From Escherichia phage vB-Eco-KMB38, in sequence record OR525701.1: 64,000 bases of DNA; one strand, given 5' to 3'. The position numbers and the translations under genes were made by a program. The notes below the pieces were generated by a model that saw only the letters and a list, made by a program, of their open reading frames with translations, searched no databases and was not told the origin of the DNA. Within the stretch, counting starts at the first letter, position 1, and each line of letters opens with the position of its first letter. Below, in pieces: positions 25,878-46,271 of this stretch.

Positions 25878-25944
25878 AACGTTCTCCTCTAGTAAGTAAG
25901 GTCTACTATAACACAACCTGAGGAGAAGTAAACTGTTAAATGCA

Positions 25945-25980
25945 AAAAAGCCCCAACCTTTCGGAAGGGGCTTTGATTAG
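25945..25980 (-). terminator. intrinsic terminator, copy 1 of a 36-bp direct repeat
   Basis: agcccc-ttccgaaaggtt-ggggct hairpin (GAAA loop) then UUUUU on the minus transcript; identical 36 nt at 26568-26603. Confidence 0.6.
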
Positions 25981-26534
25981 TTTTTGTAATATCGTAAAGG
26001 GTTGATATGGAATGAAAGCATTGCGCGTGGAATAGGACGACTCAAAAGACTCTTAAGTTTCCAACCACAGTAAACACGCAGATAAAATGTAATACCACCA
26101 ACCTTAAGATAAGGTATAGCAGCGAATAATCCCCATGCAGACTCGTTCCAAACTAAAAGATATCCATGATGTGCCGGATCAGGAGATCCAGATTTAGTTT
26201 CAGCGTTGCCTTTATAGTGCCATTCTGATGAAGCTTCGCGACCTAAAACATGATACGAAAAATTATATGCTTTGTTGCGCCATAACCAAGCTACGCGTTG
26301 AGCATATTTACCTATAACAGGAATTTTACGTATTTTAGACCAACGTTCAACATGACCACGGTCACCATCGATAGGATTATCGTAAGTCATCATCCAGTCA
26401 AAGCCATAAGGTAGTTTACCTGTTTTTTCACTATGGAATGGAACTACAAATGGTGCTAGAATAATTGCTAAAATCGCTGCGATCCAATCTATAGGAACAA
26501 GAACAACCCAACTTATGTATTTTAAAAATTTCAT
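25977..26534 (-). CDS. hypothetical membrane protein, late-promoter driven (T4 rI.1 position)
   Basis: 185 aa, N-terminal TM segment; TATAAATA late promoter 25 nt upstream; flanked by identical terminator repeats. Confidence 0.55.
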   Translation of the reverse strand: MKFLKYISWVVLVPIDWIAAILAIILAPFVVPFHSEKTGKLPYGFDWMMTYDNPIDGDRGHVERWSKIRKIPVIGKYAQRVAWLWRNKAYNFSYHVLGREASSEWHYKGNAETKSGSPDPAHHGYLLVWNESAWGLFAAIPYLKVGGITFYLRVYCGWKLKSLLSRPIPRAMLSFHINPLRYYKN

Positions 26535-26558
26535 ATATCCTCTCTTAGTTTACAAGGA

Positions 26559-26566
26559 TATTTATA
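26559..26566 (-). promoter_or_regulatory. late promoter TATAAATA
   Basis: Exact TATAAATA on the minus strand 25 nt upstream of the 26534 start. Confidence 0.55.
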
Positions 26567-26567
26567 C

Positions 26568-26603
26568 AAAAAGCCCCAACCTTTCGGAAGGGGCTTTGAT
26601 TAG
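26568..26603 (-). terminator. intrinsic terminator, copy 2 of the 36-bp direct repeat
   Basis: Same 36 nt as 25945-25980, immediately after the rI stop. Confidence 0.6.
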
Positions 26604-26902
26604 ATAGATGTAGGCTCTAATTTTATTTTCATGAACTCGGCAAATTGTCTGGCAGTTTTTATGCCTTGTTCCTGGCATTCAAATGCATCATCACAGGGGC
26701 TATTTTTGTAATGCTTTGCCATATACTTATAGAATTTTTCAGAATTCTCGACATTTTGAATTTCGAACAAAGTATATACGTTTTTAATCCCTGATTCCAT
26801 AAAGTTATCAAAGTACGGGTCAACATATGCAGTGCCAACAATAGGAGTCGTTGCTGCAAAAAACCCCAGCATCGCCACAATGGCTATCGCTCTTAAGGCC
26901 AT
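26600..26902 (-). CDS. rI: lysis inhibition regulator RI (antiholin)
   Basis: MALRAIAIVAMLGFFAAT...VDPYFDNFMESGIKNVYTLFE resembles T4 RI; signal-anchor N-terminus; position next to tk. Confidence 0.8.
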   Translation of the reverse strand: MALRAIAIVAMLGFFAATTPIVGTAYVDPYFDNFMESGIKNVYTLFEIQNVENSEKFYKYMAKHYKNSPCDDAFECQEQGIKTARQFAEFMKIKLEPTSI

Positions 26903-27151: not shown

Positions 27152-27159
27152 TATTTATA
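27152..27159 (-). promoter_or_regulatory. late promoter TATAAATA
   Basis: Exact TATAAATA on minus strand between tk and the 26915-27127 ORF. Confidence 0.5.
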
Positions 27160-27736
27160 ACAACCCTGTCAAATCATTCCAATGCTTCCGGCATAATGAC
27201 ACATATCTATCAGTATCACCAATTTCAATTTGACTGCCATCTGTAATTGGAAGTCCGTCTTCCGTGACTCTAGCTACCATTGTGGCCTTTTTACCGCAAT
27301 GACAGACACCTTTAAGTTCAACAAGCTTATCGGCGATAGCCATTAATGCTTGAGAACCTTCAAATAGATTACCTTTAAAATCTGTTCGTAGTCCATATGC
27401 CATTACCGGCACATTGTATACGTCAACAATACGACTAAGTTGATACACCTTTTCAGTAGTTAAGAACTGAGCTTCGTCAACAAATACACAGTGAATATCC
27501 TTTTGTGCTGCAGCCCATTTATAAAATTCAAAGATATCCATGTCTTTTGTAATTATATTGGCATCCTGACGAATACCAATGCGAGAGACTATTTCACCTT
27601 TTGAATCACGAGTATCAATAGCCGGTTTAAGAACTAATACACCCATGCCACGTTCTTTATAGTTATGTGCGGCAGTAAGTAATGAAGCAGACTTACCTGC
27701 GTTCATTGCTGCATATGTAAAAATTAAACTAGCCAT
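27155..27736 (-). CDS. tk: thymidine kinase
   Basis: 193 aa, P-loop AMNAGKSASLL, DEAQF, C-terminal CHCGKKA...C zinc motif. Confidence 0.9.
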   Translation of the reverse strand: MASLIFTYAAMNAGKSASLLTAAHNYKERGMGVLVLKPAIDTRDSKGEIVSRIGIRQDANIITKDMDIFEFYKWAAAQKDIHCVFVDEAQFLTTEKVYQLSRIVDVYNVPVMAYGLRTDFKGNLFEGSQALMAIADKLVELKGVCHCGKKATMVARVTEDGLPITDGSQIEIGDTDRYVSLCRKHWNDLTGLL

Positions 27737-39997: not shown

Positions 39998-40005
39998 GTA
40001 TTATT

Positions 40006-40599
40006 TTATTTCAAAGAGTTAATATATTCTTGTACATCAGCAGAAGTGGTTTCGACACCGGCTGGAGTACCATTGAACGTTTCAACACGAGTCAGAGTGT
40101 CTTCGATATCAACCTTAGTCAGTGCAGCGATTTCAATTACATCATCGGCCGTAGAGATACCAAGGGCATTGGCTGCTCGAGTTTCACGAATGTATTCGAG
40201 TTTGATTGCCAGATTCTGACGAGCATCATCAAGTTCAACCACCTTACGAGCAATTTCAATTCGCATAGCGGCATACCCGTCGGCTTTTGTATTAAGTTGT
40301 TCGGCAGTTCGACGATACAGAAGACCAAGCTTAGCATGCATGGTAACATCTTGTCCTTCGGCCAAGAGCTTACGAATTTCACGTTCCTTAGAAGCGGCTT
40401 GTTTATTCTTTTCAATAACAAGTTCGCGAATACGTTTTTCTTCATTAATAGATTTAACAGAAGCCGTTTTTAGTTCTTTGATTTGGGTAATCAACTTATC
40501 TGCAGCTGCGTTATACTGTTCTTCGACAGTCAGATTTTTAGCCATAGCAGTACCCAGTTTAGTGCGGATGAATTCAACAAGTTTCTTCAGTGTGTTCAT
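40006..40599 (-). CDS. hypothetical coiled-coil protein
   Basis: Start at MNTLKK ATG with aaagg SD; heptad-like charged helical sequence. Confidence 0.5.
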
Positions 40600-40640
40600 A
40601 TTATTACCTTTCAATTGGTGGTTTATTATCCAATGAGAGC

Positions 40641-40670
40641 ATTATACTCTGCTCTCAAGAGTTTGTAAAT
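40641..40670 (-). promoter_or_regulatory. sigma70-type early promoter (copy B of the repeated element)
   Basis: ATTTAC-N17-TATAAT; 27 of 28 nt identical to 10304-10332. Confidence 0.4.
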
Positions 40671-40897
40671 TATTTTTTAATCAAATTGACATAAAACTTG
40701 GCGTCTTCCGGGTGCATGCCTTCACAGTATTCTTCAACCATGAACTTCTTAACAGCTTCATAAGGACCACTCAGATTAAGCTCAGTTGTCCAGAACTTGG
40801 AATCTTGGGCTGAATCGATACGAACTTCAGGGTGACGGTTGCGAATAACTTCTTCGGTATATTCATAATCAACGACATCAATACTAACTTTAGCCAT
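40670..40897 (-). CDS. hypothetical protein
   Basis: 75 aa acidic ORF. Confidence 0.45.
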   Translation of the reverse strand: MAKVSIDVVDYEYTEEVIRNRHPEVRIDSAQDSKFWTTELNLSGPYEAVKKFMVEEYCEGMHPEDAKFYVNLIKK

Positions 40898-40943
40898 TTT
40901 GTTTTCCTCTTGATTTGATGTGATTACTATAACATAAACTTAC

Positions 40944-41108
40944 TTAGATGTAAATTATTTCAACGTCACCTTTAGCGGCTTTATAACCTTCAGCCCAAGA
41001 TACAACAGAGTTTTTATCTGAGGATTCAAATTCAGGCATTGGACTTTCACCGATATTCACACAGTATGTTTCTTCATTTTCATCGAACCAAATAATTAAA
41101 GTAGTCAT
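40944..41108 (-). CDS. small hypothetical protein (54 aa)
   Basis: ATG at 41106-41108 after gaggag SD and a promoter; below track cutoff. Confidence 0.35.
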   Translation of the reverse strand: MTTLIIWFDENEETYCVNIGESPMPEFESSDKNSVVSWAEGYKAAKGDVEIIYI

Positions 41109-41138
41109 TTTGTTTACTCCTCTGTAGTTGATAAGTCT

Positions 41139-41166
41139 ATAGTATCACCATCCTTGGTGCTTGTAC
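41139..41166 (-). promoter_or_regulatory. sigma70-type early promoter
   Basis: GTACAA-gcaccaaggatggtga-TACTAT-agacttatcaac. Confidence 0.4.
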
Positions 41167-41176
41167 ATCGTTATTT

Positions 41177-41482
41177 TTAATTTTTCCAACTTAACAACTT
41201 GTAGTGTCCTTCATTCGTACGAGGTTTATCCCAAGAAATACTAATATATGATTCGCTATCAATAGAAGTCGCCGGGTTTTTCTCTACCGTAAGACCTTCA
41301 CTTTCCAGCCATTCAATAGTATTTGCGCATAAATCAGAAGAACACCTCATCGGGAACCGGCAAGATTTTTCACCTTTAGCTGCAGTGTTATACATCTTTT
41401 CTAGAATACGCTTTTGCACGTTTTTAAAAATAGTTTCAGCAGATTCTTCAGATTTTTTATTCAGTTCAGTATAAAGACTCAT
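41177..41482 (-). CDS. hypothetical protein
   Basis: 101 aa ORF. Confidence 0.5.
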   Translation of the reverse strand: MSLYTELNKKSEESAETIFKNVQKRILEKMYNTAAKGEKSCRFPMRCSSDLCANTIEWLESEGLTVEKNPATSIDSESYISISWDKPRTNEGHYKLLSWKN

Positions 41483-41510
41483 AACATTTTCCTCTGCGGT
41501 TGATAAGTCT

Positions 41511-41539
41511 ATAGTATCATGTCCTTAGAAGAAGTAAAC
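41511..41539 (-). promoter_or_regulatory. sigma70-type early promoter
   Basis: GTTTAC-N17-TACTAT-agacttatcaac. Confidence 0.45.
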
Positions 41540-41571
41540 ATCTTTATGAAATATTTTTATGCCCTAGATAC

Positions 41572-41605
41572 CAAAAAGCCCCAACCGTAAGGAAGGGGCA
41601 TTCTA
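41572..41605 (-). terminator. intrinsic terminator (variant of the repeated hairpin)
   Basis: gcccc-ttccttacggtt-ggggc hairpin then U run on minus transcript. Confidence 0.55.
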
Positions 41606-42070
41606 TTATTTAATTTGTTTAGCAGACCAGATACGGTCTTTAATAAGTTTTTGGATATCTTCAACATACTCAAGGCTATGAGCGTGAGGATTATCTTTGA
41701 AACTATGTGCTCGTGCCAGTTTCTGGCCTTCTGTTTTGATTACTAAAAGCTCTTTAAGAATTGCTTCATACTTAGAAATAATTCCTTTGGCGATATTTTT
41801 TTCTTGAGCTGTTTTAGGGTCCGCTTTTGGCGCAGGTGCTTTACCTGTAGCTTTCTGGAACAATTCACCTGATGCAGCTAGGCTTTTAAAAACTCGGCTA
41901 ACAGTATTAGCATTAGTAAAACCTTCGGCTTTAAAATCTCTAATAAAACGGAAACGTTCTTCATCGGAGGCGTCTTTGTAAGAATATTTACCTGCTTGAA
42001 TTGCTGCAATCGCAGCGGCTTTTACATCTGAACTAGATTGTTCAGTCAAAAATTCAGCGTATGATTTCAT
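41606..42070 (-). CDS. internal protein-like (CTS MKSYAEFLTE)
   Basis: 154 aa with CTS-like N-terminus, Ala/Lys-rich body. Confidence 0.55.
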   Translation of the reverse strand: MKSYAEFLTEQSSSDVKAAAIAAIQAGKYSYKDASDEERFRFIRDFKAEGFTNANTVSRVFKSLAASGELFQKATGKAPAPKADPKTAQEKNIAKGIISKYEAILKELLVIKTEGQKLARAHSFKDNPHAHSLEYVEDIQKLIKDRIWSAKQIK

Positions 42071-42115
42071 GTTGCTTTTCCTAAGTTAATTAACTTATCT
42101 ATTTATTATTATACC

Positions 42116-42143
42116 AAAAAGCCCCAACCTTTCGGAAGGGGCT
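42116..42143 (-). terminator. intrinsic terminator (third identical copy of the hairpin repeat)
   Basis: aaaaagccccaacctttcggaaggggct identical to 25945 and 26568 copies. Confidence 0.55.
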
Positions 42144-42149
42144 AAGCCT

Positions 42150-42456
42150 TGCGGCAACCTTGTCGGGGTTCCACCTGCTAAGGCAAGTGTTTGTACGAAA
42201 CGCCGGGATTCGAACCCGGTTATTAAGTAGTTGACGCTACTCAATATTTTTAAAAGGCCATATCTCGACCATATCCGAACGTTCCGTCAAAAACGCTACT
42301 CGGCTTACGGCAAAGATATTTCCTCGAATCGATAATTCTGTGCGCCGTTTCTGCTGTGAGATAAGGGACTTTAAGATGTCAACTCATGTACGCCTTAAAG
42401 TCGGGTCTTATTCAGGGAACATCAGTCCGACGACTTGCCGGTAGCGACCCGGCTTC
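42150..42456 (-). ncRNA. putative stable small RNA(s) with tRNA-like T-arm
   Basis: About 300 bp with no ORF and high GC for this genome; minus strand has canonical CCGGG-TTCGAAT-CCCGG T-arm and a 7-bp acceptor-like pairing. Confidence 0.4.
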
Positions 42457-42801
42457 TTATTTTGGCATATCATCAATTTGCTCTCGACGCCGACGCCATA
42501 GATTAATCGCTTCATTAACACATTCGGCGTTTGGTATATGACGGCAATAATATAATGATTCACGTTTCTGGAACCGATGTTGCAACGGGATTTCGTTTAA
42601 AAGGTCTTTACGGTCAAAGTATTCAAAACTAGTTAACCCAGAACGGTTTTTAATGAACTTCCAATGTCCAAATTCATTTTGAACATAGATGTAATCGGCA
42701 TGCTGATACAGCGAATTAATCAATCGATGAGAAATAACTGTATCATATTCGTTAAAATAAAACGTTAAATCATGAACTACCAGATAAACATTGCCTTTCA
42801 T
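42457..42801 (-). CDS. hypothetical protein
   Basis: ORF 42457-42849 trimmed to the internal Met so it does not overlap tRNA-Arg. Confidence 0.45.
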   Translation of the reverse strand: MKGNVYLVVHDLTFYFNEYDTVISHRLINSLYQHADYIYVQNEFGHWKFIKNRSGLTSFEYFDRKDLLNEIPLQHRFQKRESLYYCRHIPNAECVNEAINLWRRRREQIDDMPK

Positions 42802-42821
42802 ATTTTCCTCACTTAAAGTTG

Positions 42822-42896
<75 letters not shown>

Positions 42897-42902
42897 AATA
42901 TA

Positions 42903-42976
42903 TGACCCAGACCAGATTCGAACTGGTAACCTTTCCCTTATGAGGGGACTGCTGCTAACCGTTGAGCTACAGGGCC
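42903..42976 (-). tRNA. tRNA with anticodon CAT (Met, or Ile2 if lysidine-modified)
   Basis: GGCCCTGTAGCTCAACGGTTAGC...CCTCATAAGG...ACCAG-TTCGAAT-CTGGT; anticodon loop CTCATAA; D-stem pairing imperfect by hand. Confidence 0.6.
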
Positions 42977-43055
42977 TAAATAACTTTCTATTATGAAAGG
43001 CACTTTAGAGCACCTTTGGTAATAGATGGTATGAATTAATAATAACACATAATTC

Positions 43056-43571
43056 TTAAAGCAAATCAATCATTTTAACAGTTGGCAAAACGATTTCTTC
43101 TTCAATATAAGCAAATTCAACACATTCAACTACACGCAAGAAATCATAATCATAATATTCAGAAGCATGACCAAGAATACCAACGAGACCTTCTGATACT
43201 AAATATCCATTCTCACGGAACAGGTCGAATACACGCGATTCGTCTTCTTCAGATTTATTACCAAGGTCGACTTCAATATCAAAGACCTTTTTAATGAATT
43301 CTGGATAAAGCTGGTCTGAGAACAGTCCTTCAACCAAGTATTCGTAGATTAAAAGCGAGCAATCACTGAATGGTGTATTACCACAGTAACGTTCAGCTTT
43401 AGTGCTGGAATGACGACTCTTAAATTTCTTCAAAAGATATTTAAACTGTTGGAGCTCATGCTCTTCCACTTCAAACAATGTTTTGGTTTTATAGTTGTCA
43501 CCATCATTTTCATAAGTAGTGACATCAATTACGTAACCCTTAGGAATTGTACTGCCTAAACAAATATTCAT
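43056..43571 (-). CDS. hypothetical acidic protein
   Basis: 171 aa ORF. Confidence 0.5.
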   Translation of the reverse strand: MNICLGSTIPKGYVIDVTTYENDGDNYKTKTLFEVEEHELQQFKYLLKKFKSRHSSTKAERYCGNTPFSDCSLLIYEYLVEGLFSDQLYPEFIKKVFDIEVDLGNKSEEDESRVFDLFRENGYLVSEGLVGILGHASEYYDYDFLRVVECVEFAYIEEEIVLPTVKMIDLL

Positions 43572-43575
43572 TTAC

Positions 43576-43866
43576 TCACCGTACCATATTAATGTAATTA
43601 TATTCAATGCAACGTAATTTCAAAGGATTCTTGAAAATATCATATTCAAGAGGGCCTTTTTCTGTTTCAATAAAGAAATCAAAGTTAACTGTGTTAAATT
43701 TATCATCTTCACAGAGTAATTTAACTTGCGAAGATGAACGGTCGATATAAACCTTTTCAACCTCAAAGTTAGTCAGAATACCATAGTCATTAACTAGTGC
43801 TTTAGCTGCACGTTGATCGCTTTCATATCCATTCTCGACAGATTTTACTTTAGCATAAAGAATCAT
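43576..43866 (-). CDS. hypothetical protein
   Basis: 96 aa ORF. Confidence 0.5.
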   Translation of the reverse strand: MILYAKVKSVENGYESDQRAAKALVNDYGILTNFEVEKVYIDRSSSQVKLLCEDDKFNTVNFDFFIETEKGPLEYDIFKNPLKLRCIEYNYINMVR

Positions 43867-44225
43867 GAGTGTTCCACCACTTCAAAGGTATGAGCATCAA
43901 CAATATGATACCAGTCAAAATTTTCTTCTGCGTTTTTATAAATTTCGCGAAGAGCCTCAACAGTTTTTCCTGTAGCAACAAGGTCGTCAATACCGCCAAG
44001 AGGATAACAGTCATATCCAGCAAACAGAAGGAAATTAATAGTTTCTGTAGGTTCTGGATGCAGAACACCGTTATCGTCTACCACTTCAAAGAAAGTGTAA
44101 GAAGGAGTACAAGTTTTAATCCAAGCCCATGCTTGAGCTGCTGAATCAAATGGTCTGCGTATCAAACGACAATCAGGGTCTTTAGAAGGATTTGCTTCAA
44201 AATCTGCATATACATGATATTTCAT
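43863..44225 (-). CDS. hypothetical protein
   Basis: 120 aa ORF; 43850-44068 ORF is an alternative frame. Confidence 0.5.
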   Translation of the reverse strand: MKYHVYADFEANPSKDPDCRLIRRPFDSAAQAWAWIKTCTPSYTFFEVVDDNGVLHPEPTETINFLLFAGYDCYPLGGIDDLVATGKTVEALREIYKNAEENFDWYHIVDAHTFEVVEHS

Positions 44226-44432
44226 TTACTCACCTTTTGCAATTTTATCCATAACAATAGCGATTAAACCGATTAGAAATGCTACTACCAATGAGATAGA
44301 ATTTTCTGTTGTTGTCAGTAGTCCACAAATGAATCCTACAAACATCGAAAAACTAAAGGCCATTGAAGCAATTACTACAGCAACATTACGAATCAGTTCA
44401 GCGCGTTTCATTTTATTTCTCCATTTACTCAT
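44226..44432 (-). CDS. hypothetical small membrane protein
   Basis: 68 aa, two hydrophobic helices. Confidence 0.5.
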   Translation of the reverse strand: MSKWRNKMKRAELIRNVAVVIASMAFSFSMFVGFICGLLTTTENSISLVVAFLIGLIAIVMDKIAKGE

Positions 44433-44446
44433 TTGTTTTGATAGGA

Positions 44447-44478
44447 CTACTATAACATAGTCCTATCGTGTTGTAAAC
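44447..44478 (-). promoter_or_regulatory. sigma70-type early promoter with inverted repeat
   Basis: GTTTAC-N18-TATAGT; arms gataggacta/tagtcctatc. Confidence 0.5.
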
Positions 44479-44481
44479 TAC

Positions 44482-44769
44482 TTACAGAAGAGTTTTTGCA
44501 ATAATTTTAAGCTGAGCTACAGAAATATGCTTAGCTTTAAACAGTGCAGTCTCTTCAGCCGGAGAGATAACAATAGTAGCGCCATCTTTCTTAGCAGACC
44601 ATCCATCCCCTAAGTAAACAGTACCTTTTACTTCTTCACCATCAACCAGACTAATCATTGGTTTACCCTCACGTCCTTTATTTGTTTTAATAACTTCAGA
44701 AGTAAGGGATGCTTCGGTCAGAGTAGAAACGTTAGCAACAGGTGATATAAATTCTTTATAGGTTTTCAT
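44482..44769 (-). CDS. internal protein (CTS MKTYKEFISP), T4 ipI position
   Basis: 95 aa with CTS N-terminus located just upstream of 57B as ipI is in T4. Confidence 0.6.
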   Translation of the reverse strand: MKTYKEFISPVANVSTLTEASLTSEVIKTNKGREGKPMISLVDGEEVKGTVYLGDGWSAKKDGATIVISPAEETALFKAKHISVAQLKIIAKTLL

Positions 44770-44803
44770 TTTATTTCCTTGAGGCTGTTTATTTGATAGG
44801 ATG

Positions 44804-44832
44804 ATAGTAACACACCATCATCCTTATGTAAA
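44804..44832 (-). promoter_or_regulatory. sigma70-type early promoter with inverted repeat
   Basis: GTTTAC-N17-TACTAT; arms aggatgat/atcatcct. Confidence 0.45.
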
Positions 44833-44846
44833 CTGTTTTGTGAAAA

Positions 44847-45532
<686 letters not shown>

Positions 45533-45536
45533 TTTA

Positions 45537-46271
45537 TTACCTTAAGATTTTTTCAATTTTAGAATAAAGCTCTTCTAAAGAGCCGTCGTTTGTAATAACT
45601 AAGTCGCCTTCTTCAATAGGCAACCCAGCTTCTGTAATATGTTTATCAGTGGATTCCGTACCAGAGCGAACCACATGAATAACTGTAGCACCCATCGCTC
45701 TAGCGGTTTCCATTTCATGGACTTGGCGTGTATCGGTCACAACGTAGTAATCGAAATCACTTCCAATATAATCCATATAGTTTAATGCAAAAAGCTTAAC
45801 CCAATACATACGGTCAAATAAATTAACGACAACATCCGTACCGAGGGCTTGCATAAGACGGCGGATCGACCACGTGTCGTTGATATTATTTATAGCTTCA
45901 CGCAGGGCTTCGTACGGTTTAATATCTAGATATGAGTATCCACCTTCTAGTGATGATAATACGTTAACACCATTAATTGGCAGGTATTGTCGTTGTAAAT
46001 AAATTAGCGTTTCTTCCATTAATTCAATAACATCTAATTTATTGAGATTTAATGGTGTTTCACGGTCGTATCCAATACCTTCAAAGTATTCGTATTTCAA
46101 CTCAGTGAATACATCCGGGTTTTCGACGTGTTTACGCTCCCAAGCTATTGCTAGAGAGTCTTTAATTGGATATGCTAATTGATATTTTATGGATTTAAAG
46201 TTTGAATTGATGTAATCAGCAGTAGTGTCTTTACCACTACGTTTGATGCCGCTTAAAAAGATTAGCTCCAT
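45537..46271 (-). CDS. 1: deoxynucleoside monophosphate kinase gp1
   Basis: MELIFLSGIKRSGKDTTADYINSN...WSIRRLMQALGTD...GATVIHVVR, close to T4 gp1. Confidence 0.9.
   Translation of the reverse strand: MELIFLSGIKRSGKDTTADYINSNFKSIKYQLAYPIKDSLAIAWERKHVENPDVFTELKYEYFEGIGYDRETPLNLNKLDVIELMEETLIYLQRQYLPINGVNVLSSLEGGYSYLDIKPYEALREAINNINDTWSIRRLMQALGTDVVVNLFDRMYWVKLFALNYMDYIGSDFDYYVVTDTRQVHEMETARAMGATVIHVVRSGTESTDKHITEAGLPIEEGDLVITNDGSLEELYSKIEKILR

Follow-up and report, generated by a model that had tools for sequence, protein, structure and literature searches.

Presence and absence of a putative late-promoter gene unit between copies of a terminator-like hairpin at two loci of T4-like phages

In the 64,000-nucleotide stretch of Escherichia phage vB-Eco-KMB38 analyzed here (sequence record OR525701.1; hereafter the window), a gene for a 185-aa DUF7338 protein lies next to the antiholin gene rI, between two identical copies of a 36-nt terminator-like repeat. 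One repeat hairpin, a T4-type late-promoter motif and the DUF7338 gene together form a 623-bp unit that close relatives either have or lack as a whole. This precise polymorphism is found at two loci in two phage genera, its boundaries fall inside the hairpin, and the lineage of the window bears the mark of conversion between the two copies. We consider it probable that the unit is a late-promoter analogue of the promoter-early stem-loop (PeSL) mobile regulatory cassettes and that it is gained and lost via recombination between hairpin copies. The original prediction, made from the letters of the window, had described an exchangeable cassette beside rI, and the presence/absence polymorphism at two loci supports that reading.

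Anatomy of the repeat-bounded unit

The 36-mer AAAAAGCCCCAACCTTTCGGAAGGGGCTTTGATTAG occurs in two exact copies in the window, at 25945-25980 and 26568-26603, with a start-to-start distance of 623 bp (0 of 100 shuffles gave a match). All genes around the repeats are encoded on the minus strand according to the list of open reading frames (ORFs). On this coding strand, each copy consists of a TAA, a GC-rich hairpin and a U-run, that is, a predicted intrinsic terminator with its stem-loop and U-tract just 3' of a stop codon. The minus-strand RNA of each copy is predicted to form the hairpin AAAGCCCC-UU-CC-GAAA-GG-UU-GGGGCUUU, followed by 5-6 U (fold energy -17.9 kcal/mol, z = -3.4). As the original prediction had stated, each copy contains the stop codon of the gene upstream (25977-25979 for the 185-aa ORF in copy 1, 26600-26602 for rI in copy 2), and the pair brackets this ORF, which has a hydrophobic N-terminal helix, beside rI. 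A consensus terminator scan missed the repeat hairpin because its stem has an internal UU/UU mismatch; a custom hairpin scan of the window minus strand did recover it. The features of the locus are as follows:

Copy 1 of the repeat, 25945-25980, minus strand: DUF7338 stop codon, hairpin (25949-25972) and U-run, from exact match, fold, hairpin scan and junction survey.
Copy 2 of the repeat, 26568-26603, minus strand: rI stop codon, hairpin (26571-26596) and U-run, from exact match, hairpin scan and junction comparison.
Unit present or absent as a block (one hairpin, late motif, DUF7338), 25981-26603 or, equally, 25945-26567, minus strand: empty sites lack exactly this length.
Cassette gene, 25977-26534, minus strand: 185-aa protein, DUF7338 (PF24027, phrog_2143), from the ORF list, Pfam, PHROGs and AlphaFold.
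T4 late-promoter motif TATAAATA, 26559-26566, minus strand: directly 3' of the U-run of copy 2 and 24 nt before the DUF7338 ATG.
Shine-Dalgarno-like AGAGAGGA, 26538-26545, minus strand: upstream of the DUF7338 ATG, as read from the sequence.
T4-type early promoter (TTTACT-16 nt-TATAGT, upstream TG), 25905-25932, minus strand: directly after copy 1, from a promoter scan.
rI antiholin gene, 26600-26902, minus strand: Pfam Antiholin PF24205 (E = 5.7e-24) and annotation in related records.

The early promoter after copy 1 precedes a mobD.2a-like gene. The exact late promoter that had been claimed for the unit is present as a motif, but statistically it is unremarkable alone (6 occurrences of TATAAATA in the window against 8.5 expected). 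Since the motif stands at chance level, its reading as a promoter rests on its position and on its conservation in relatives: its place right after the hairpin is conserved in JS98, IME281, VR5 and LF82-8, and a hairpin-TTTTT(T)G-TATAAATA junction also lies 5' of DUF7338 in JS98 and its relatives and 5' of internal-protein-like genes elsewhere. A second exact TATAAATA is located at 27152-27159 (minus strand), at the start of tk (27155-27736) and 24 nt upstream of the rI.1 start (27127). A late rI.1-rI transcript could begin there and end at copy 2.

The original prediction had also considered that the repeat might simply be the standard terminator of the region. The hairpin family accounts for 4 of about 21 terminator-like hairpins found by the custom scan on the window minus strand, and on this count we rejected a generic terminator.

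Presence and absence of the unit at two loci

The window belongs to Mosigvirus (RB69-like, T4 family). With Escherichia phage PTK the region shares 99.9% identity, and with many Mosigvirus genomes 96-98%; the neighboring genes are homologues of tk, rI.1, rI, mobD.2a and RB69ORF107c. A query of 1801 bp across the locus matched 192 records, 22 of which covered it in full. RB69 and all other listed records covering two thirds of the query matched in two pieces spanning 1172-1182 bp; for most of these records the span is 1179 bp, equal to 1801 - 622. A tblastn search likewise returned 22 records with DUF7338 at 95% aa identity or more. As 13 of the 22 carriers are sibling LF82-n isolates, they represent about ten independent carriers. 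Overall, the gene is carried by about 22 of about 160 Mosigvirus records, and the majority are empty.

We read the junction of seven empty sites (RB69, NHEP10, phiC120, SF, ChristianSchoenbein, 172859UKE1 and p000y). All seven join the left flank of copy 1, with its early promoter, through one hairpin to the right flank of copy 2, with rI, which is the product to be expected if recombination took place inside the hairpin. Related phages without the gene and with one repeat kept had been predicted, and RB69, the listed two-piece records and these seven junctions provide them.

The same arrangement was found at a second locus in Dhakavirus. In JS98 (locus sequence examined 100% identical to EF469154), the end of rnaC is followed by the hairpin GGCCCTTCCGAAAGGTTGGGCC, by TTTTTTGTATAAATA, by DUF7338 ending in TGA, by the same hairpin again, and by TTTTTGTATAAATA and an internal-protein-like gene (MKTYNEF start). 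The repeat spacing in JS98 is 623 bp, equal to that in the window, and the leader from promoter to ATG is homologous in the two phages. Among the matches listed, JS98, UP19, IME281 and AnYang are filled, and dhabil, CLBP2, IME08 and SHP1 are empty, with two pieces spanning 379-380 bp (1001 - 622 = 379). In dhabil, one hairpin links the end of rnaC to TATAAATA and the internal-protein-like gene. Thus, as in PeSL systems, ORFs with a variable presence among close relatives lie between copies of a repeated element, and the indel boundary is within the element (seven Mosigvirus junctions and dhabil).

Further arrangements occur in other phages. In phages of the vB_EcoM_005 / QL01 type, an internal-protein-like gene is followed by DUF7338 and then by the hairpin with an early promoter. 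Gaprivervirus (DK-13, VR20) has the hairpin and late promoter 5' of DUF7338 and a different terminator 3' of it. The original prediction had named the same gene without flanking repeats as a counter-case. This case exists in the distant Karamvirus, Felixounavirus and RB16, where DUF7338 lies in or near tRNA clusters without the hairpin, but the JS98 gene is again flanked by the hairpin, at another locus.

Within Mosigvirus, the flanks form mosaic haplotypes on which phages with and without the unit are interspersed; five of seven filled phages find their nearest flank haplotype in an empty phage. Over 1180 flank positions, the filled phage NHEP29 and the empty phage NHEP10, two isolates from Hyderabad sewage, show 15 differences. 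Between carriers, the inserts differ at 2-12 of 601 positions and are somewhat less diverse than the flanks. This pattern of sequences shows that the filled or empty state changed or was exchanged repeatedly, with gains, losses and flank exchange inseparable in it; because of recombination, the flank haplotypes give no direction of events. In the carrier TH58, the flank diverges completely from other Mosigviruses more than about 200 nt left of the hairpin, beyond the mobD.2a-like gene, which indicates another replacement nearby in the same hyperplastic region.

The extent of the repeat identity differs between carriers. The core common to other phages is the first 28 nt of copy 1 (25945-25972). 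In the six other gene-carrying Mosigviruses read (NHEP29, PTE-Eco05, AV109, FL18, LF82-1 and TH58), the copies share only this 28-bp core, AAAAAGCCCCAACCTTTCGGAAGGGGCT, with a few bases fewer in three of them owing to a single base change in the rI-side copy (in the loop in PTE-Eco05 and AV109, at the last base in TH58). The rI-side spacer, from core to stop codon, is TAGTAAA in the six carriers and in five of the seven empty sites, with single-base variants in TH58 and 172859UKE1, and the DUF7338-side spacer of the six carriers is TTTGA. All 13 other Mosigvirus genomes read thus have TAGTAAA or a one-base variant on the rI side, where the window has TTTGA, as in copy 1; TTTGA occurs in both copies in the window and in PTK alone. 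The rI junction matched 160 records: among those listed, PTK alone has the 83-bp match of the window, and the 29 others all match over 85 bp at 95.3% identity, which corresponds to the TAGTAAA form. Since the 36-bp identity was seen only in the window and PTK, it represents an extension, specific to this lineage, of a repeat of 28 bp. Its most economical cause is conversion or an exchange of patches from one copy to the other, which is an indirect sign that the copies interact. In PTE-Eco05 and AV109, the rI-side hairpin loops read CCATAAGG and CCTTTAGG, respectively, instead of CCTTTCGG, with no change in the DUF7338-side copy. In some lineages, then, the copies diverge, and in others they are homogenized.

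Hairpin origin and the DUF7338 family

Two further members of the hairpin family lie elsewhere in the window, as had been noted in the original prediction:

Third copy, 28-bp core, 42116-42143, minus strand: exact match to the first 28 nt of the repeat; terminator directly 3' of an rnaC-like stable RNA.
Variant hairpin, 41572-41605, minus strand: differs in its loop (CCGTAAGG on the plus strand); ends the internal-protein-like gene 41606-42070 (minus strand).

The homologous hairpin of T4 (GCCCCGACCGAAAGGTTGGGGC) sits after rnaC, and every exact match to hairpin plus TATAAATA in IMG/VR lies after rnaC or after DUF7338. Judging from these positions, the repeat hairpin is the rnaC terminator sequence of T-even phages. 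At the rI locus of JS98 and T4, by comparison, rI is followed by rI.-1, an unrelated terminator and an early promoter, a homologous pairing of terminator and early promoter at the equivalent place. As the hairpin after rI was seen only in Mosigvirus, it may have arrived there together with the cassette.

Downstream of the third hairpin of the window come an AT-rich stretch resembling a late promoter and an internal-protein-like gene. Upstream of this hairpin, 42144-42450 (minus strand) shows homology with T4 rnaC (species 1 RNA) over the 3' part of that RNA and has a tRNA-like GGTTCGAATCC arm. ARAGORN and Rfam found nothing at 42144-42450, and no Rfam family covers the rnaC-like RNA; the only tRNAs called within 40000-46000 are tRNA-Arg (42820-42896) and tRNA-Met (42903-42976). 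The slot after rnaC, between the hairpins 41572-41605 and 42116-42143, holds a 154-aa gene (41606-42070, minus strand) starting MKSYAEFLTE, a leader that resembles annotated internal head proteins (JS98 IpIII starts MKTYKEFIAEA). In other Mosigviruses, this slot is occupied by different members of phrog_2280 (MKTYAEFLTEA..., MYTFNEFLAE...) or contains an additional gene. By its variable gene content, this second hairpin-bounded slot is also hyperplastic.

DUF7338 is a strongly conserved family with homologues in 553 phage records. The Pfam match of the cassette gene product scores 209.1 bits against a cutoff of 27 and covers residues 1-184, and the phrog_2143 match has E = 4e-79; PF24027 and phrog_2143 are both annotated as of unknown function. 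The invariant residues include D52, G57, H61, R64, W65, WLWRN 83-87, Y90, R153 and GWK 157-159. The AlphaFold model is confident (pLDDT 94) and predicts a membrane helix at the N-terminus (residues 9-33) together with a helical region and a beta-sheet. A fold search of solved structures (PDB) with this model gave no convincing match, the PADLOC defense-system search gave no match for DUF7338, and we found no mention of DUF7338 in the literature. A few Felixounavirus and Citrobacter records label the protein a holin, a label that nothing we examined supports. T4 rI.-1 was considered as a homologue of DUF7338 and rejected (BLASTP E = 0.16). DUF7338 is the sole long ORF and the sole family match of the 623-bp unit, in which the other overlapping ORFs of at least 30 aa measure 30-38 aa. 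The unit encodes no transposase, recombinase or endonuclease domain as would be found in a transposon, an insertion sequence or a homing endonuclease element.

In Karamvirus and Felixounavirus (PG7, JohannRWettstein and Felixounavirus-like contigs of IMG/VR), DUF7338 lies within tRNA arrays, with about 60% aa identity across two phage families. In T-even phages, too, it occurs at the rnaC/tRNA locus, and the association with tRNA clusters is recurrent.

Proposed mechanism, rival explanations and related systems

We propose that the module, in the order hairpin, U-run, late promoter TATAAATA, Shine-Dalgarno sequence, DUF7338 ORF, TAA and next hairpin, would act as an insulated unit. The upstream hairpin would end the rI.1-rI transcript, the late promoter would drive DUF7338, and the downstream hairpin would insulate the early promoter of the next gene. 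With this insulated layout, the module could be added or removed without disturbing its neighbors. Gain and loss would proceed through homologous recombination between hairpin copies, either by Campbell-type excision and integration via a small circle, or by unequal exchange or replication slippage. By either route, an empty site would keep one hairpin and a filled site two.

Several points weigh against this proposal. Termination, late transcription, circles and deletion variants are predictions from sequence, and the late motif is not enriched in the window. We infer that recombination takes place at the hairpin itself and not in the flanks, but ordinary recombination in the conserved rI and mobD.2a flanks could alone spread the cassette within Mosigvirus. 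Most carriers offer 28 bp of homology and not 36 bp, and the T4 literature, as far as PMC2839356 quotes it, describes patches of homology that are small (<50 bp); over such lengths, events should be rare. More distant homologues carry DUF7338 without the hairpin. Further, a search of the phage database, IMG/VR and 5.8 billion proteins for a close donor of the Mosigvirus DUF7338 returned nothing between 80% and 95% aa identity. The move between the loci is thus old, and its stepwise reconstruction is impossible.

Mosigvirus flanks share 95-98% identity and have a visible mosaic structure, so exchange through them is certain and would be enough for spread within the genus. It is nevertheless unlikely, in our judgment, that flank exchange is the whole explanation, with the hairpins as mere terminators around a single unrelated insertion whose patchiness came from recombination in the rI and mobD.2a flanks between co-infecting phages. 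Such exchange leaves unexplained why one 28-bp hairpin contains both indel boundaries, why the same hairpin-bounded 623-bp unit is polymorphic at an unrelated locus in Dhakavirus, and how the spacer of copy 1 came to stand in copy 2 in the lineage of the window. A history of loss alone has a real chance of being correct, although we lean away from it: the Mosigvirus ancestor would have had hairpin, DUF7338 and hairpin after rI, and the lone hairpin of about 85% of the genomes would be a scar left by repeated deletions that never takes up the unit again. Deletion by recombination or slippage between direct repeats is mechanistically easier than integration, the empty sites match the expected deletion products, and the hairpin at the rI locus, seen in Mosigvirus alone (JS98 and T4 differ), may have come with the cassette. 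However, across genera the cassette is found in at least three different places with respect to rnaC, the internal-protein-like gene and rI, which implies insertion or translocation at hairpin sites at least a few times. The lower diversity of the inserts relative to the flanks (2-12 differences in 601 nt) fits recent spread as well as ancient presence.

We regard it as very improbable that a dedicated hairpin-specific recombinase or nuclease moves the cassette, in the manner of attC/IntI or of homing. A formal likeness to integrons exists in the single ORF with a hairpin and the one site left when empty, and GGGG...CCCC stems have been speculated to be protein targets (Arbiol et al., PMC2839356). 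Yet the 623-bp unit encodes only DUF7338 and no recombinase or endonuclease, and the homology-dependent recombination of the phage itself suffices. To our knowledge, no enzyme of such a kind is known in T-even phages. Practically no weight attaches to a chance match or an assembly artefact, for which there is only the general caution that short-read assemblies may mishandle repeats: zero chance matches are expected, the two-copy structure was read in the six other carriers, and about ten distinct gene-carrying isolates are on record in addition to the LF82-n record set from one source.

Recombination between hairpin copies, the explanation we favor, belongs to a known class, PeSL-mediated modular shuffling, and is a neat extension of it rather than a surprise. 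In RB49 and phi1, PeSL cassettes were shown as mini-circles by inverse PCR, with crossovers inside the repeated element (PMC2839356); PeSL-bounded indels were inferred for PST/T4 and nt-1/KVP40, and a variant with a middle promoter is termed PmSL (PMC2839356, PMC4122927). In both systems, a short conserved terminator stem-loop with a promoter recurs in hyperplastic regions and flanks small, often single-gene, self-contained units that differ between close relatives, with boundaries in the repeated element. Copy 1 with its early promoter (25905-25980) has the PST/T4-type layout, for which the consensus is TTTACW..N17..TAYWAT (PMC2839356, PMC4122927). Copy 2, in contrast, is followed by the late motif TATAAATA (26559-26566) and not by an early or middle promoter, an analogue that the PeSL papers leave undescribed; the term "late promoter" has zero occurrences in the 2010 PeSL paper (PMC2839356). 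The sequenced RB49 mini-circle crossovers fall between the -10 box and either the start codon or the Shine-Dalgarno sequence, and an AT-rich region was named as the site of the ORF192 deletion (PMC2839356), whereas the homology of the Mosigvirus unit is the hairpin itself (28-36 bp), a specific and widely conserved sequence, the rnaC terminator. Mini-circles were observed in RB49 and phi1; the DUF7338 unit is known here from genome sequence. The extension lies in the late promoter, in a hairpin derived from rnaC, in polymorphism at two loci of two genera and in conversion between the hairpin copies.

The T-even internal-protein loci offer a second comparison. They hold polymorphic genes between conserved flanking blocks (Repoila et al. 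1994, in the summaries given in PMC2839356 and PMC4122927), and their elements are T4 early promoters with weak, AT-rich stem-loops according to Arbiol et al. (PMC2839356). As far as these later summaries go, late accessory genes vary there, as here, in number, order and identity between conserved non-coding blocks. The JS98 DUF7338 unit directly adjoins an internal-protein-like gene, and the slot after rnaC holds different internal-protein-like genes across Mosigviruses. Measured against the same summaries, our hairpin differs in its GC-rich stem and its late promoter motif, and DUF7338 differs in having no internal-protein leader. Integron cassettes share with the unit the single ORF with a hairpin-forming site, the one copy at an empty position and two flanking a filled one, and the circle as a natural model. 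They differ in that the DUF7338 unit has its own promoter and neither integrase nor attI within, and its recombination is presumed to be driven by homology and the phage machinery; we know of no integrase in T-even phages. As in the formation of solo long terminal repeats, recombination between direct repeats would remove the intervening DNA and leave one repeat, but the hairpin repeats are functional regulatory elements of 28-36 bp and not transposable-element ends.

Beyond this, we offer a tentative idea that we would not bet on: the rnaC-terminator hairpin with its late promoter would be a dedicated portable recombination linker of T-even phages, a "late-promoter stem-loop". DUF7338 and internal-protein-like late genes may then hop as mini-circles between hairpin copies, loci and genera, and single hairpins that today act as ordinary terminators, such as that after rI in RB69, may be scars or landing pads. 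Conversion would keep the copies of one genome identical, and a factor that binds the hairpin might help.

DUF7338 is widespread, highly conserved and often found in tRNA clusters, and the matched pairs NHEP29/NHEP10 and LF82-1/p000y (the empty phage with the closest flank), which differ by DUF7338 at this locus, could be used to study its function. Additionally, PTK with its 36-bp repeat and LF82-1 with its 28-bp repeat form a natural comparison of homology length with recombination between repeats. The locus shows cleanly, in a natural setting, how T4-like phages gain and shed accessory genes with their neighbors undisturbed, and it widens the PeSL concept from modules with early or middle promoters to one with a late promoter. 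A further suggestion from it is that, among terminators of ordinary appearance, some are scars of recombination or landing pads.

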